From a plasmid: 32,715 nt of DNA. Under the pieces are notes generated by a model that was not told the DNA's origin, ran no database searches, and worked only from the letters and a program-made list of their open reading frames with translations. The translations under genes were made by a program, and so were the position numbers. The DNA is taken from assembly GCF_053078305.1 (NCBI RefSeq), contig NZ_CP166878.1, one strand, 5' to 3'. Each line of letters starts with the position of its first letter. Position 1 is the stretch's first letter. Shown here piece by piece: positions 1 to 32,689 of the stretch.

Positions 1-1866
1 ATGCAAGCAAATGATGAGTTTCTTCGCTTGGTTTTTGAAAACATATGGCCATGGTGGACATATGCCTGGGTTTTAGTTTTTTCTTTGTTATGTGTGTTTA
101 CATTTTCGGGTCATGCAGAAAAAAGTGGTGATAAGAGTACTCTGCGTTTCATTATTGAAGCAGCCAGGAAGAAATTACTTGTTGCATGGATTTTATGTAC
201 TCTTTTGTTCTTTCTATTTGTGTACATAATAGCGTGGAAACACTTTGGGGAAGATTCACATAAAGCATCACTTTATATGGAGTTATTGTATGAGCGGATT
301 GGTGACAAATCTTTCTCATTTGGTGATTATTGTGGTATAGCATTTGTGCTACTTTTTCCCTATGCCTGTCAGATAATTAATCGCCGTCTTATAAGACCAA
401 AACTATCATCATGGCTTCGTCGTTTTCGTGTGTCTCAGACCTCGGATACTATGAGTGATATTCGTGTTGAGAAAGGTAAATATTCGCCTAAAAACTTCAA
501 TCCTTTAGATTATTATAAGGATGGTCATTTCTTTTTAGGATTAGATGAAAATGATAAAGCAATCTACGTTACAGATGACTATTTGTCTAAAGTAAATATT
601 AAAATTTTAGGCGCAACGCAAACGGGTAAAGGTGTTATTCAGGGGGTTATTGCAGACCAGGCAATATTGAAAAATTGGGGTTTGTGGTTCTGGGATCAGA
701 AACCAGATAAATTTATTTACTCGATTATGAAACAACGTTGTGAGTCAGAGGGGCGAGAAATATATGAAGTTGATTTGAATGGTGAAGGTATAGGTGATTA
801 TGCGCCATTTAAGAATGGTACAAAACGTGAAATTTTGGATAGGTTTTTTAATGCGTTTTCTCTTGAGACTGGCGGGACTGATGCAGACTATTACAAAAAT
901 AATGCACAGGAGGTTATGTACTATATATATACTTTTTGGGACCGTTCGTTAAACGATTTACAAAAATTGTTGTCTGGTAGTGATGATAGAATACCGGAGG
1001 AAAAACAGGAATGGATAGCTAAAAATGGAGCTAATATTCGAACGCAGCTTAATAAATGGTTAGAGCTTCCTTGTCTATCTCCCGCTGATGGTCAGGGATT
1101 AAATGTAACTGAACTGGTTAAGTCAGGTGCGGTTATTTATGTAAAAGGTAGCACAAAAGATAAGGTTGTCAGGGCTGTCTTAAAATCAATGTTGCGTGAG
1201 TGGTCTGCGGCTGTTATTCGTGAACAACCAAAAAATCATGTGTTGGGGATAATTGATGAGGCCCGTTTTGTTATCTCGTCAGAGGTTGCTGATAGTCTGG
1301 CAACTATATTATCCTCAAATGCAAGTTTGTCTATTGCATATCAAGAGAGAGATGACCTTTTAAATATACCGGATGAAAAACCGCAGATTGCTCAGTCAAT
1401 AAAAAAAGGGACGGAAACAAATACCAATTTGACACTTGTTTATCGTTGTAATGACGAGACGGCTGAATGGGTTGCCAAAAATTCTGGTACAACTGCGAAG
1501 AGTCTGACAAAACTTGAAGAAGTCGAAACTGACGGTTATGGCGCGGAAACATGGAAGGGACGACGAATGATTGGACAGGAAGAGGATTACTATATACCAG
1601 TAAATACGGTTCTTGCAGTTGAAGAACGAGTTGGTATTATGCAGACTATGTTTGAACTCAGTCGGGTTTTATTTACATGCTGGGTTCCTGTTCAACGTTT
1701 TTATACACTTCCGGCCCGCCCTCAAACGGAGCACGATAATGTTCAGGATTGTATAAAGAATGATGGTTCAATTTCTCCGAGTGATGAGGATTACTTTAAT
1801 CCTGACATGATTAGTGATGAAGAGCTAGCGATGATAAATAAAACAGTATCGTCAGACAGTAAATAA
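1..1866 (+). CDS. virD4: Type IV secretion coupling protein (VirD4/TraG-family ATPase)
   Basis: 621-aa ORF with Walker A-like GATQTGKG and Walker B-like hydrophobic-DE (LGIIDEARFV), N-terminal hydrophobic segments. ORF begins at window edge, so the true start may lie upstream. Confidence 0.7.
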   Translation: MQANDEFLRLVFENIWPWWTYAWVLVFSLLCVFTFSGHAEKSGDKSTLRFIIEAARKKLLVAWILCTLLFFLFVYIIAWKHFGEDSHKASLYMELLYERIGDKSFSFGDYCGIAFVLLFPYACQIINRRLIRPKLSSWLRRFRVSQTSDTMSDIRVEKGKYSPKNFNPLDYYKDGHFFLGLDENDKAIYVTDDYLSKVNIKILGATQTGKGVIQGVIADQAILKNWGLWFWDQKPDKFIYSIMKQRCESEGREIYEVDLNGEGIGDYAPFKNGTKREILDRFFNAFSLETGGTDADYYKNNAQEVMYYIYTFWDRSLNDLQKLLSGSDDRIPEEKQEWIAKNGANIRTQLNKWLELPCLSPADGQGLNVTELVKSGAVIYVKGSTKDKVVRAVLKSMLREWSAAVIREQPKNHVLGIIDEARFVISSEVADSLATILSSNASLSIAYQERDDLLNIPDEKPQIAQSIKKGTETNTNLTLVYRCNDETAEWVAKNSGTTAKSLTKLEEVETDGYGAETWKGRRMIGQEEDYYIPVNTVLAVEERVGIMQTMFELSRVLFTCWVPVQRFYTLPARPQTEHDNVQDCIKNDGSISPSDEDYFNPDMISDEELAMINKTVSSDSK

Positions 1867-1922: not shown

Positions 1923-2987
1923 ATGGATAAAAAGACAAAAACATATCCTTTTGGTGACATTGAGTTTTTTGACCAGTTAGAGGAACATGCATGGGACCAG
2001 ATTCATGATGGTATGCTACCAATTATGGATTTGTATCTTGATCCGACAGTAACCGATATATTTATAAACAGGTATGACAATATATATACATCTGTCAATG
2101 GCAAGTATGTAAAGACCGACAGTTCCTTTTCCAGTGAACGGGCACTTAAAGCCTGGATTGATCAAATCGCAACGGTGTTGAGGCAGCCATTTTCAACGTC
2201 AGGAAACTATAAATATGGTGATGTCATTGAGCCTGTACTTGATGCCCGATTTCCCGATGGTTCCCGGTTGATGTGTACAGACCCGGTGATTTCACCGCAG
2301 GGTTCTACGGTAAGTCTTCGTAAAGTACCTAAGCAAATACTGGAAGAAAAAGATTTTATAAATTCCGGTATGTTGACGAGAGATATTCTTGATTATCTCA
2401 TTAGTGTTATACAAAAACGGAAAAATTTTATTGTTGCTGGTAATACTGGTTCTGGCAAAACATCACTTTTACGCTTGCTCGCCAGGTATATTGATACGAT
2501 GGAGCGTGTTATCACCGCCGAAGACACTCAAGAACTTCATATACACAGGTATTTTCCGTTAGGGATTGCTCTGGAAGCTGCACATCGTAAAGATGTGAAT
2601 GCGGATCTTCCTTCTCTGGTTCACCTGACTATGCGTGGTAATCCCGATCGTGTATGGGTTGGGGAGGTAAGAACGGCAGAGGCTATAGCTGCTTATTACA
2701 TGGTTCTGGCAAGTGGAACTATAGGTAATGCTACAACTCTGCACTCCGTTACCCCTATGGGGGCAATACGCAAAATGACCTGGCTTATGTCAAGCTATCT
2801 CAGTATCGATTTTCAGATAGCTCAGGATTTAATTATGTCAGAGGTTGACGTGATTATTCAGTGCCGGAGAACATCAAAGCATGGAAGAAGAATTACAGAT
2901 ATCGTCGAAATACGTGAAGGGAAAATTGTTCCTATATTCAAGTTTGATGAAGAGCAAGAAGTACATGTCAGGTTTGACAAAAAATGA
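1923..2987 (+). CDS. virB11: VirB11-family secretion ATPase
   Basis: 354-aa ORF; Walker A GNTGSGKTS, downstream ITAEDTQEL and conserved His-box region typical of VirB11/TrbB traffic ATPases; ATG at 1923. Confidence 0.9.
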   Translation: MDKKTKTYPFGDIEFFDQLEEHAWDQIHDGMLPIMDLYLDPTVTDIFINRYDNIYTSVNGKYVKTDSSFSSERALKAWIDQIATVLRQPFSTSGNYKYGDVIEPVLDARFPDGSRLMCTDPVISPQGSTVSLRKVPKQILEEKDFINSGMLTRDILDYLISVIQKRKNFIVAGNTGSGKTSLLRLLARYIDTMERVITAEDTQELHIHRYFPLGIALEAAHRKDVNADLPSLVHLTMRGNPDRVWVGEVRTAEAIAAYYMVLASGTIGNATTLHSVTPMGAIRKMTWLMSSYLSIDFQIAQDLIMSEVDVIIQCRRTSKHGRRITDIVEIREGKIVPIFKFDEEQEVHVRFDKK

Positions 2988-3000
2988 ACATTTAGCATTA

Positions 3001-3080
3001 TATGCTTATATGCTTATATGCTTATATGCTTATATGCTTATATGCTTATATGCTTATATGCTTATATGCTTATATGCTTA
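3001..3080. repeat. Perfect tandem octamer microsatellite (TATGCTTA x10)
   Basis: Ten uninterrupted head-to-tail copies of TATGCTTA directly readable in sequence, starting 14 bp after the virB11 stop. Confidence 0.95.
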
Positions 3081-17649: not shown

Positions 17650-17710
17650 CAACCCCCTGATATCTCTCTTAGAGCTTTTGCGGGGCCAAAGAAGATAATC
17701 AGGGGGTCCA
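17650..17710 (+). promoter_or_regulatory. Long stem-loop in repA leader (candidate antisense-RNA target)
   Basis: Arms CCCCCTGATATCTCTCTT / AAGAAGATAATCAGGGGG around an 18-nt loop containing GCCAA (one base off the conserved IncFII/IncB loop hexamer); location upstream of leader peptide and repA. Confidence 0.45.
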
Positions 17711-17743
17711 AAGCAGGCTTTTGCCTGTAAAGGATTATAGCAA

Positions 17744-17800
17744 ATGCATTTTTCAATACAAGACTACTGCCCGGCAATAAGTGCGGGCGGTGGTGGCTGA
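17744..17800 (+). CDS. Leader peptide overlapping repA start (translational coupling candidate)
   Basis: 18-codon ORF MHFSIQDYCPAISAGGGG whose stop lies 17 nt inside repA, the arrangement seen for tap/repY-type leader peptides. Confidence 0.45.
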   Translation: MHFSIQDYCPAISAGGGG

Positions 17801-30460: not shown

Positions 30461-30676
30461 ATGAGCGATAAGATCCAAGAAATCACACAAAAAATTGAGA
30501 AATTGCAGATAAAATTGAGCAAAATTGAAGAGGAAAAAAACAAGATACAATCAAAGCTGGTTAAGTTAGAAGAAGAGAAAAAATCAATACAGCGCAAGCT
30601 GATTCTACAGGAGAAAAGAGAAGAGCTTGAAATGCTTTTAGACAAAGAAAGTTTTGATATTTTATTCAATAAATGA
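30461..30676 (+). CDS. Small coiled-coil protein (71 aa)
   Basis: Heptad-like K/E/I/L-rich sequence (IQEITQKIEKLQIKLSKIEEEKNKIQSKLVKLEEEKKSIQRKL); AAAGGTG RBS; divergent from the AT-rich operon. Could be a chance ORF in AT-rich DNA. Confidence 0.4.
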   Translation: MSDKIQEITQKIEKLQIKLSKIEEEKNKIQSKLVKLEEEKKSIQRKLILQEKREELEMLLDKESFDILFNK

Positions 30677-30974: not shown

Positions 30975-31885
30975 AAGAGGACGAAAAAGAGGAAACATGA
31001 ATGTTTCCTCTGCCATGTTACTACCGTGAATTTTCAGCTACTTATCTGTACTGGTTGCCTCCAGTATTTTCAGATTCATCTACAGACTTCGGCTATATCG
31101 TCTGTAGATTTTTGCGCCTACTCGTTCACTCTCCCACACTCAGGAATGTAATTTCGGTGCCACCCGAAATTTTCCAGAGTGCTTCCCACGTTAGCTGATC
31201 TTGTCGGGATAACCCGCCACTGGCTCAGACAAACTACTAGGCTACGCCTTACCATTTCTGGCTTTCAGGGGGCCGAGATTCCAAAGCACCTCCCTTACTC
31301 ATAATTTGCCGTCAACACCATAGCCAGACACTTAAGTCATGGCTGGTTATCACTTACCCGAATGCGACCTCTTCGGACGCAATTACAGGCTTGAGCTTTA
31401 CAGCGATCTGCAAAGGTTGCCCCTCACAGTACCGACGTTTCCAGGTTTCCCCTCAACGCCCTGACACCTCACGATGCCCTCAGCAGCCCACCTGTCGGGA
31501 ATATGTTGTACCTTCTCAAGCACCCCATATTCGGGATTTTCACCCGTTCAAGATCAACAGGGATCACGTAGTCACCTACGTTCCCGTTTCCGTGTCGCCC
31601 AGTCTCACGCTTTGGCGTGGATTGGGTCGGACAGGGGAGTTTCACCCCCGAACGCCCTTCGTAGCCGTACCAGCCCAATTACAGGCATACGGCTTCGGCA
31701 GTAACTGTTATCAGGGTTGGCAGTCCTGATAACTCACCTTCGTTTGGCAGACGAAGGCTTTTGGCTTTTTTCGTCTTTCGACTTCCCAAAAATGCGTCGA
31801 GAGTTGGCAGCTCGCAACGCACGTTTTGTTACGTAAGCGATGCTTGATAGTCCGGCGCCCGAAAGGCTCGCATCGAGCCGGACAT
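30975..31885 (-). ncRNA. Candidate ~900-nt structured non-coding RNA (unclassified)
   Basis: ORF-free, G-rich on the minus strand; minus-strand sigma70-like promoter (-35 TTGCGC, 17-bp spacer, -10 TATTAT at 31918-31890) and a minus-strand terminator (GAGGAAACAU-UC-AUGUUUCCUC then UUUUU) at 31003-30975; many internal hairpins. Confidence 0.3.
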
Positions 31886-31996
31886 CAGTATAATATTTAA
31901 CCTGTAAGCGCAGCGCAAGGAATCTCTTTATAAGGTATTCCCATATGTTGATTTCTTTTATGTAGCGGTTACTACATAGCTTTTATGAGGATTTCG

Positions 31997-32689
31997 ATGA
32001 TTTACCGTTTTAAAACCGATTTTATGCGTCAGATAGCCATGCTGTTTTCGCTGGGATATACAAGGTGGTTTGGTGGCGAAATTCCTCTAAACCCTCACTA
32101 TAAATTCGTGTCACTAAAAGCACGTTTTGATGAACTCTACGCTATCAATGCAACAGCACAACAACGTTTCAGGAGAAGAGAAAAAGGAGTAGCAAACTGC
32201 AAATTTCTTGTCTGGTTTGATGAAAAAAATGCAACTCTTTTATGGGTGTTACTTGCAACAGAAGGGGATGTATACAATGAAGAGAAATTTTATGATGGTA
32301 TGAATAAAAAAACTCGTATTTCTGTTTCAGGTTATGAACTAAAAACAGTTCCACATCGAGGTAGAAAACCTAGCGTTTCATGGGCTATGAAGAAAGAAAC
32401 TTATGAAAAGTGGCATGCGGATATAAAGAAGTCGATAAGAACAAGAAATGATGAGAATATAGAAAAATTATGGTATTCACTCAGGAGGGTGGCAGGGTTT
32501 AGTGAGTTACGTAGACAGGTATTTAAGTTACAGAGATATGCAATGACAGAGTGGAAACGCTCCAGAAGAGGTGAATATCCTTATGAGAAGATTTTTGTTG
32601 GATGGTTAGGACGATTTAAACAAAGTGAAACCATCACAGATGAAGAGCTTTTGTTAATATCGAAGTCAAAAAAAGCTGATATCTTTTAG
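31997..32689 (+). CDS. Hypothetical protein (about 230 aa), basic/aromatic-rich
   Basis: ORF with GAGGA RBS before ATG 31997 (track start 31985); preceded by inverted repeat ATGTAG-N6-CTACAT; no family recognised. Confidence 0.5.
   Translation: MIYRFKTDFMRQIAMLFSLGYTRWFGGEIPLNPHYKFVSLKARFDELYAINATAQQRFRRREKGVANCKFLVWFDEKNATLLWVLLATEGDVYNEEKFYDGMNKKTRISVSGYELKTVPHRGRKPSVSWAMKKETYEKWHADIKKSIRTRNDENIEKLWYSLRRVAGFSELRRQVFKLQRYAMTEWKRSRRGEYPYEKIFVGWLGRFKQSETITDEELLLISKSKKADIF

Follow-up and report, generated by a model that had tools for sequence, protein, structure and literature searches.

Evidence for a circularly permuted group II ribozyme gene beside acpG on Escherichia coli plasmids

What is encoded by more than a kilobase of plasmid DNA that holds no credible open reading frame (ORF)? 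The question is raised by a 32,715-nucleotide (nt) stretch of DNA (NZ_CP166878.1), analysed here at its full length and called the window, which belongs to an Escherichia coli plasmid and has near-identical counterparts in 28-35-kb E. coli plasmids. Between a small plus-strand ORF that ends at 30676 and a 234-amino-acid (aa) plus-strand ORF that starts at 31985 lie ~1.3 kb with short mechanical ORFs only. An earlier note, made from the sequence alone, read this region as the gene of a large structured RNA on the minus strand, with a promoter and a terminator of its own; it saw there a hairpin with the outline of group II intron domain V, which it could not fit to a canonical intron, and it could name no matching RNA class. 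We propose, with high confidence, that the minus strand from ~31884 to 30985 is the gene of a circularly permuted (CP) group II ribozyme. The permuted order of the domains accounts for a domain V that seemed "misplaced" as well as for the lack of an intron ORF.

CP group II ribozymes are ~900-nt non-coding RNAs that Thermus, Firmicutes and Proteobacteria encode on chromosomes as well as on plasmids (Roth et al. 2021, PMC8637638); examples are Cte 1 of Comamonas testosteroni KF-1 and Pna-1-1 of the Polaromonas plasmid pPNAP05 (PMC8637638). In this class, domains 5 and 6 (D5 and D6) precede D1-D4, no ORF lies inside the RNA, and two additional 5' hairpins, P1 and P2, make pseudoknots (PMC8637638). 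The linker between D6 and D1, 15-86 nt long, is excised as a circle via NU and GGGCG splice sites, which have been mapped in C. testosteroni, and a protein of ~260 aa, AcpG (TTHC007), is often encoded divergently upstream of the RNA (PMC8637638). A hydrolytic route has also been described for the class, and Cte 1 has also been studied by cryo-electron microscopy.

The assignment of the window RNA to this class comes from homology to a published member. An nhmmer profile made of the window copy and nine plasmid homologues, and of no published member, matches the Pna-1-1 RNA on pPNAP05 at 112-693 with E=4e-68 (published span NC_008761.1 83-834). Projection of the published consensus secondary structure (SS_cons) via Pna-1-1 places all domains of the window RNA in the order P1-P2-D5-D6-linker-D1-D2-D3, with D4 assigned by position only. 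The domain-V-like hairpin (31694-31663) is real and is a genuine homologue of group II domain V. It was also correct to set the element apart from a canonical intron, since D5-D6 lie 5' of D1, no host gene is interrupted, and D4 holds no reverse transcriptase (RT). For the window copy, the analysis establishes that it belongs to the class, that its structure is conserved, that its catalytic and splice-site elements are intact and that it is linked to AcpG. The E. coli element adds a member, and a host genus, to a class known since 2021 and does not found a class of its own; Ralstonia pickettii, Acinetobacter and Polaromonas pPNAP05 are among the published taxa, and Escherichia is not (PMC8637638).

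The RNA is conserved across a wide range of bacteria. A distant blastn comparison with plasmids recovers a ~480-nt core (window ~31257-31739) in nine genera at 65-76% identity, almost never annotated. This core is carried by small, unrelated plasmids from Halomonas, Azotobacter, Thiothrix, Paraphotobacterium, Paraburkholderia and Ralstonia; Acinetobacter and Novacetimonas have shorter pieces of it, and compensatory changes in hairpins are visible already in the first alignment. Scanning 100,044 species genomes for the most conserved 19-mer, followed by nhmmer, yields ~85 full-length homologues of 50-70% identity, nearly all from Proteobacteria (Alpha-, Beta- and Gamma-) and some of them on contigs of 0.2-1.7 Mb. 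No match to the RNA was found in the phage collection, and a pattern scan of IMG/VR returned two loci, one with a 36-nt local match only and the other without any.

For a test of the structure, the published SS_cons was mapped via the pPNAP05 alignment row (register checked) onto a MAFFT alignment (A2) of 68 non-redundant homologues; in the published member, the columns of P1 and of the linker are not alignable to the window and were excluded from the pair count. On the pPNAP05 sequence, 191 of the 201 pairs of the published structure are canonical. In the alignment, 76.2% of cells are paired under the projected structure, against 57.2% in column shuffles, none of 500 reaching the observed value, and 38-43% with slid partners. 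The covariation score is 0.429, against 0.153 for the shuffles and 0.08-0.13 for slid partners, and changes on both sides are seen at 167 of 199 pairs. Pairing is 76-99%, with four to six pair types, in several D1 helices and in the closing helices of D2 and D3. The fold energy agrees: the minus strand gives -356.4 kcal/mol (z = -6.6, 20 shuffles) and the plus strand -300.5 kcal/mol, a difference of 56 kcal/mol, which together with conservation in ~85 homologues bears out a structured minus-strand RNA gene.

The two E. coli lineages, carried by plasmids of ~30 kb and ~3 kb, provide a comparison at closer range. Between them, five helix pairs are fully compensated and nine are preserved by a change on a single side, seven from A-U to G.U and two from G.U to Watson-Crick. 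The A-U to G.U changes preserve pairing solely in an RNA read from the minus strand. Composition and signals agree with the note in most respects. G+C is 0.50-0.55 across ~31000-31800 and 0.30-0.40 in the flanks, and a plus-strand GC skew of -0.15 to -0.29 over ~31000-31700 means that the minus strand is G-rich, as the note had said. The terminator was called by the scan. The promoter claim stands in part: both boxes and the 17-nt spacer are present, within a ~110-bp divergent region common to the ribozyme gene and acpG, but "near-consensus" is an overstatement for 8/12 consensus matches overall with 3/6 in the -35 box, and the promoter scan did not call it. The transcription start of the ribozyme gene is a putative one. 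The lack of a credible ORF was also well observed, the longest mechanical ORF of the region having 112 aa (31391-31729, plus strand), the mechanical ORFs having TTG/GTG/ATG starts, and the three longest ORFs inside the RNA region having no NCBIfam match.

Might the conserved unit act as DNA rather than as ribozyme RNA, for instance as a replication origin or primer, a single-strand initiation site or an origin of transfer (oriT)? The element occurs in 20 of 5,426 complete E. coli genomes, at 22 places that are all on plasmids and none chromosomal; it often lies near rep or type IV secretion system (T4SS) coupling-protein genes, and in pPNAP05 it is near the origin, as reported by Roth et al. 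(PMC8637638). These associations could suit a DNA-level plasmid element, yet the element is found with unrelated replicons (RepL, TrfA, Rep_3 and others) and on the 0.2-1.7-Mb contigs, and the strand-specific G.U pattern favours RNA. In the literature, moreover, class members self-process in vitro, and replication was unimpaired when most of the pTT8 copy had been deleted. We consider a DNA-level element very unlikely.

The region is annotated in none of the E. coli records, and at the gathering score and at E<=10 Rfam 15 gives chance-level matches only in the window. The covariance models of GOLLD, ROOL, OLE, raiA and HEARO have no matches there, and neither do the Rfam group II models (Intron_gpII and the D1D4 models), even at E<=10. 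Such results might point to large structured RNAs of a class not described before. The published pPNAP05 RNA (NC_008761.1 1-1000), however, is also without a match in Rfam 15 at E<=10; the window lacks an Rfam match because the CP group II class is absent from Rfam 15, and the Rfam search proposed in the note cannot detect the class. Homology to Pna-1-1, a member of a class published in 2021, and the fit of the published structure refute both the statement that no RNA class could be named and the idea of an undescribed class, which is left with a scant probability.

The clear group II character of D5 and D6 and the lack of an intron-encoded protein would also fit a canonical group II intron in decay or in fragments, either an ORF-less remnant or an ORF-less intron of the type of hydrolytic endonucleolytic ribozymes (HYER), that is not selected as a unit. 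The placement of D5-D6 5' of D1, however, is shared by ~85 homologues from three proteobacterial classes, together with the same splice motifs and the P1 and P2 pseudoknots, and no Rfam group II model matches. Of the 142 columns conserved to 90% or more in the other 66 sequences, the window copy keeps 139 and deviates at three, against a family median of four; judged from these columns it looks intact. We regard decay as extremely improbable. A degenerate protein-coding gene or pseudogene, to which the 112-aa plus-strand ORF and one Halomonas record with a hypothetical protein over the homologous region might point, has next to no chance of being the answer, as the ORFs have no family matches, conservation tracks base-paired columns (with compensatory and G.U changes) and not codons, and indels fall in hairpin tips.

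Several points nevertheless weigh against the reading as a CP group II ribozyme gene. The structure used in the test is the published consensus transferred through one sequence; it is independent of our own alignment and not of the class definition. Some helices are only 36-60% paired, in length-variable regions that MAFFT aligns poorly, and neither D4 nor the D3-D1 pseudoknot has a confident assignment. The candidate promoter is weak and confined to this plasmid lineage. An A.C mismatch at position -2 of the 5' splice site, described below, could lower use of that site. Self-processing of the window copy is a prediction by homology to Cte 1, and its expression is presumed.

The features of the ribozyme gene and of its neighbour are collected in Table 1.

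Table 1. Features of the putative CP group II ribozyme gene and of acpG, in window coordinates. D, domain; EBS1, exon-binding site 1; IBS1, intron-binding site 1. A slash marks the bond at a splice site.
Feature	Position	Strand	Description
Candidate sigma-70 promoter	TTGCGC 31918-31913, 17-nt spacer, TATTAT 31895-31890	-	Read from sequence
Leader	31758-31884	-	Only in ~30-kb E. coli plasmid copies; hairpin 31883-31850 and 'P0' (folds, constrained and free)
P1 stem-loop	31737-31757	-	6 bp, loop UCUGCCAAA; loop-to-3'-end pseudoknot in the published model
P2 stem-loop	31707-31733	-	9 bp, loop ACUGCCAAC; 31722-31718 pair with D2 loop
D5 catalytic hairpin	31663-31694	-	AGC 31694-31692, five bp 31691-31687, bulge U31672 G31671, upper stem, UAAU loop
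D6	31624-31657	-	Bulged branch A31627 and conserved internal loop
3' splice site	U31621/C31620	-	AAU/C; by homology to mapped C. testosteroni sites (NU)
Linker, predicted excised 20-nt circle	31601-31620	-	CCACGCCAAAGCGUGAGACU; hairpin 31619-31606; IBS1 31605-31601
5' splice site	U31601/G31600	-	GGGCG; by homology to mapped C. testosteroni sites
D1	31187-31600	-	Begins GGGCGAC at 31600; closing helix 31594-31591/31190-31187
EBS1	31280-31275	-	AAUCUC, in conserved 14-nt D1 loop 31287-31274, GCUUUGGAAUCUCG
D2	31136-31182	-	Loop GUGGCA 31163-31158 pseudoknots with P2 loop
J2/3 linker	31130-31135	-	GGGAGA; corresponds to purine-rich J2/3 of the published model
D3	31026-31129	-	Closing helix 31129-31124/31031-31026, GAGUAGG...GAAA internal loop, two variable hairpins
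3' tail	30983-31025	-	UGGCAG 31015-31010 (P1-loop partner), terminal hairpin 31011-30988, U-run
Intrinsic terminator	10-bp stem 31011-30988 and T-run	-	Terminator scan
Three deviating conserved columns of the window copy	31602; 31652 and 31630	-	Alignment columns
acpG	31997-32689; in-frame ATG also 31985	+	Divergent, upstream of ribozyme gene

Across the 68 sequences, the 11 pairs of D5 are 97.6% paired, eight of them with changes on both sides, and the hairpin fits the published description of D5. The 11 pairs of D6 are 99.5-99.7% paired with up to six pair types. Within D6, A31627 is bulged between the pairs 31655-31626 and 31654-31628, at -7 relative to the 3' splice site, and is invariant, as is the GGAG of J2/3 in the 68 sequences. 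As a separate observation, the internal loop of D6 (31652 and 31630, minus strand) changes from a consensus C.U mismatch to U.C in the E. coli copies and in Thiothrix, which makes it a covarying non-canonical pair beside the branch helix.

The pairing of EBS1 with IBS1 was found by a column scan: in 60% of sequences, the linker ends on its 3' side in a complement of AAUCU from the conserved D1 loop GCUUUGGAAUCUCG. This EBS1-IBS1 interaction is 92% paired family-wide with 23 AU-to-GC changes, and the window forms four of the five pairs. The exception is position -2 of IBS1 (31602, minus strand, U>C), which is C in both E. coli lineages and U in all other aligned homologues, and which gives an A.C mismatch with EBS1. 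A different EBS1 candidate, GUCU at ~31232, had been chosen by eye and was dropped when the column scan favoured the conserved loop at 31280. Elsewhere in D1, pairing reaches 99.6% in the closing helix and 90-99% in several internal helices, which show four to six pair types.

The two class-specific pseudoknots of the published model can both be drawn in the window. The well-aligned 7 bp of P2 are 89% paired with changes on both sides at all seven, and four compensated pairs in P2 distinguish the two E. coli copies. The pseudoknot between the P2 and D2 loops comprises 5 bp in the window, and its core four pairs are 91% paired family-wide, one of them with 10 GC-to-AU changes; the closing helix of D2 is itself 92% paired, with changes on both sides at all five pairs. 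For P1, the loop CUGCCA (31750-31745) is complementary to the UGGCAG of the 3' tail, with 6/6 Watson-Crick pairs in the window, and a perfect 6-mer partner of the P1 loop is present in the 3' tail of 13 of 62 homologues, against ~3% expected by chance. The evidence for this pseudoknot between P1 and the 3' end, drawn from such sequence matches, is weaker than for P2-D2. The closing helices of D3 are 76-95% paired with compensatory changes, whereas its interior comes from a constrained fold alone. The terminal hairpin is an intrinsic terminator and sits where D4 would; the D4 assignment is positional only.

The leader differs from the rest of the RNA in that it is conserved neither in the 3-kb plasmid copy nor in other taxa. 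It contains a hairpin upstream of P1, P0 (31794-31820, minus strand), the loop of which is a third CUGCCAA, identical to the loop motif of P1 and P2. The RNA offers two UGGCA partners only (31162 and 31015) against these three CUGCCAA loops, and P0 is absent from the 3-kb plasmid copy. One possible role of P0 is that of a competing or regulatory pairing.

We propose, from homology to the characterised C. testosteroni ribozyme Cte 1, that the window RNA should back-splice. D5, through its AGC triad and UG bulge, would build a metal-ion active site with J2/3 on the scaffold of D1, while the 3' end of the linker would be held by EBS1 (31280-31275). The bond between U31601 and G31600 would then be attacked by the 2'-OH of the bulged A31627, and the freed 3'-OH of U31601 would in turn attack the bond between U31621 and C31620. 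The predicted products are a 20-nt circular RNA and a branched two-piece RNA in which P1-D6 is joined 2'-5' to D1-D3.

The divergent ORF upstream of the ribozyme gene (31997-32689) is AcpG, a homologue of TTHC007. A profile of the AcpG homologues matches Thermus thermophilus TTHC007, the founding AcpG, with E=4e-20, and with 9e-44 after a second round. Homologues of AcpG adjoin the RNA in 64 of 92 loci, and in 60 of these the gene is upstream and divergent, typically 190-400 nt away. At E<=0.001, the family counts 1,474 cluster representatives in a set of 1.84 billion proteins. Searches with AcpG found nothing significant in Pfam (alone or with each member of the alignment), NCBIfam, PADLOC or, by profile, the PDB sequences.

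AcpG was reported to be without detectable homology in 2021 (PMC8637638), and its predicted structure is the source of a proposal for its origin. An AlphaFold2 model from a 49-sequence alignment is confident, with a pLDDT of 94.3 and a pTM of 0.89, and shows the palm-plus-thumb fold of an RT. Its structural matches include, after the leading ones, G2L4 RT, a DGR (diversity-generating retroelement) RT, DRT9, Prp8, retron RTs, DRT2 and AbiA, and the non-RT matches are short helical ones. Foldseek against the PDB gives nothing at E<=0.001. At the level of sequence, when the AcpG profile is compared by hhalign with LtrA (its sequence checked against 5g2x), the probability is 0.2%, which is not significant, and the sole local alignment places the first strand of AcpG on RT motif A. 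Among the 1,692 ORFs of the fetched loci, in which RTs were sought to build an RT profile, there were none. The 142 AcpG sequences have no conserved YxDD, motif-A Asp or DD; E96, E114, W129, F168, R172 and many Lys and Arg residues are conserved in them, and D100 and E185 less so.

From the model, we infer that AcpG has a palm-plus-thumb RT fold without a polymerase active site and could be a maturase-like RNA-binding cofactor. We further suggest that AcpG may descend from a group II intron RT/maturase (palm and thumb/X), having shrunk, lost catalysis and moved outside the ribozyme, which it would still serve, as a cofactor in folding or splicing or by partnering the branched or circular product; on the predicted fold, this proposal seems to us evenly poised between right and wrong. 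If it is true, CP group II RNA together with acpG forms a domesticated two-gene remnant of a retroelement. A literature search, incomplete in coverage, found no paper besides Roth et al. that connects AcpG to group II introns. For the one protein that is genetically tied to the class, the RT/maturase-like predicted fold offers a concrete, testable hypothesis.

The surroundings of acpG bring in conjugation-type genes. The window is apparently one whole circular plasmid, and 26 nt past acpG, across the window ends, begins a 621-aa coupling-protein-like gene (1-1866, plus strand; weak TraD match), followed by a VirB11-type ATPase gene (1923-2987, plus strand). Homologues of the 621-aa protein stand beside the RNA/acpG module in seven other loci, in different genera and in another arrangement. 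At 17651-17778 (plus strand, 86 bits) lies the Rfam PK-repBA pseudoknot, the sign of a repBA-type replicon under antisense-RNA control, some ~13 kb away from the ribozyme gene.

In E. coli, the RNA occurs with and without its protein partner. Fourteen plasmids of ~27-35 kb carry the RNA with acpG and seven of ~3 kb carry it without. The 3-kb RepL plasmids hold the window segment 31026-31724 at 96% identity and no acpG, for example NZ_CP045717 (1280-1875) and NZ_CP075648. Strain FHI_NMBU_11 has a 3-kb plasmid with the RNA alone and a 34-kb plasmid with RNA and acpG; since both plasmids share one strain, AcpG could act in trans. The ~30-kb T4SS-type plasmids and the 3-kb RepL plasmids offer a natural comparison of RNA with acpG against RNA alone. 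These natural E. coli copies were previously unlisted, and they bring the question of the biological role of the class, whose chemistry and structure are well characterised, into its most tractable host. They also expose an annotation gap, in that a class missing from Rfam 15 leaves its genes unannotated or miscalled as hypothetical proteins. On a Halomonas plasmid (CP098531), the homologous ribozyme region at 2224-3048 is annotated on the opposite strand as a 'hypothetical protein' coding sequence, which is probably a miscall stemming from the absence of the class in RNA libraries.

Set beside the known CP group II ribozymes, the window RNA has the same size (~0.9 kb), the same domain order, the same lack of an internal ORF, the same plasmid bias and a divergent acpG. 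It shares with them the D5 AGC triad, five base pairs and UN bulge, the bulged branch A, the GGGCG and NU sites, a short hairpin linker, EBS1 in a conserved D1 loop, and the P1 and P2 loop pseudoknots. Unlike the published members, the E. coli copies have the EBS1-IBS1 A.C mismatch and the swapped mismatch in the D6 internal loop, and the ~30-kb plasmid copy has the extra 5' leader with the third CUGCCAA hairpin.

With canonical bacterial group II introns, the RNA has in common homologous D5, D6 and J2/3, the logic of EBS-IBS pairing and, by homology, presumably the branching chemistry. It differs from them in the position of D5-D6 5' of D1, in the lack of an interrupted host gene and in its 'exon', a 20-nt internal linker that would be circularised, whereas canonical introns join two flanking exons. 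Its 5' end is GGGCG and not GUGYG, D4 holds no ORF, and there is no evidence of mobility. AcpG, compared with a group II intron-encoded RT/maturase, has no sequence-level similarity, is half the size and is encoded outside the RNA. HYER are ORF-less group II-C derivatives of canonical domain order that act as hydrolytic endonucleases; like them, the window RNA is group II-derived and has no intron-encoded protein, and unlike them it has a permuted domain order and a conserved branch-point D6.

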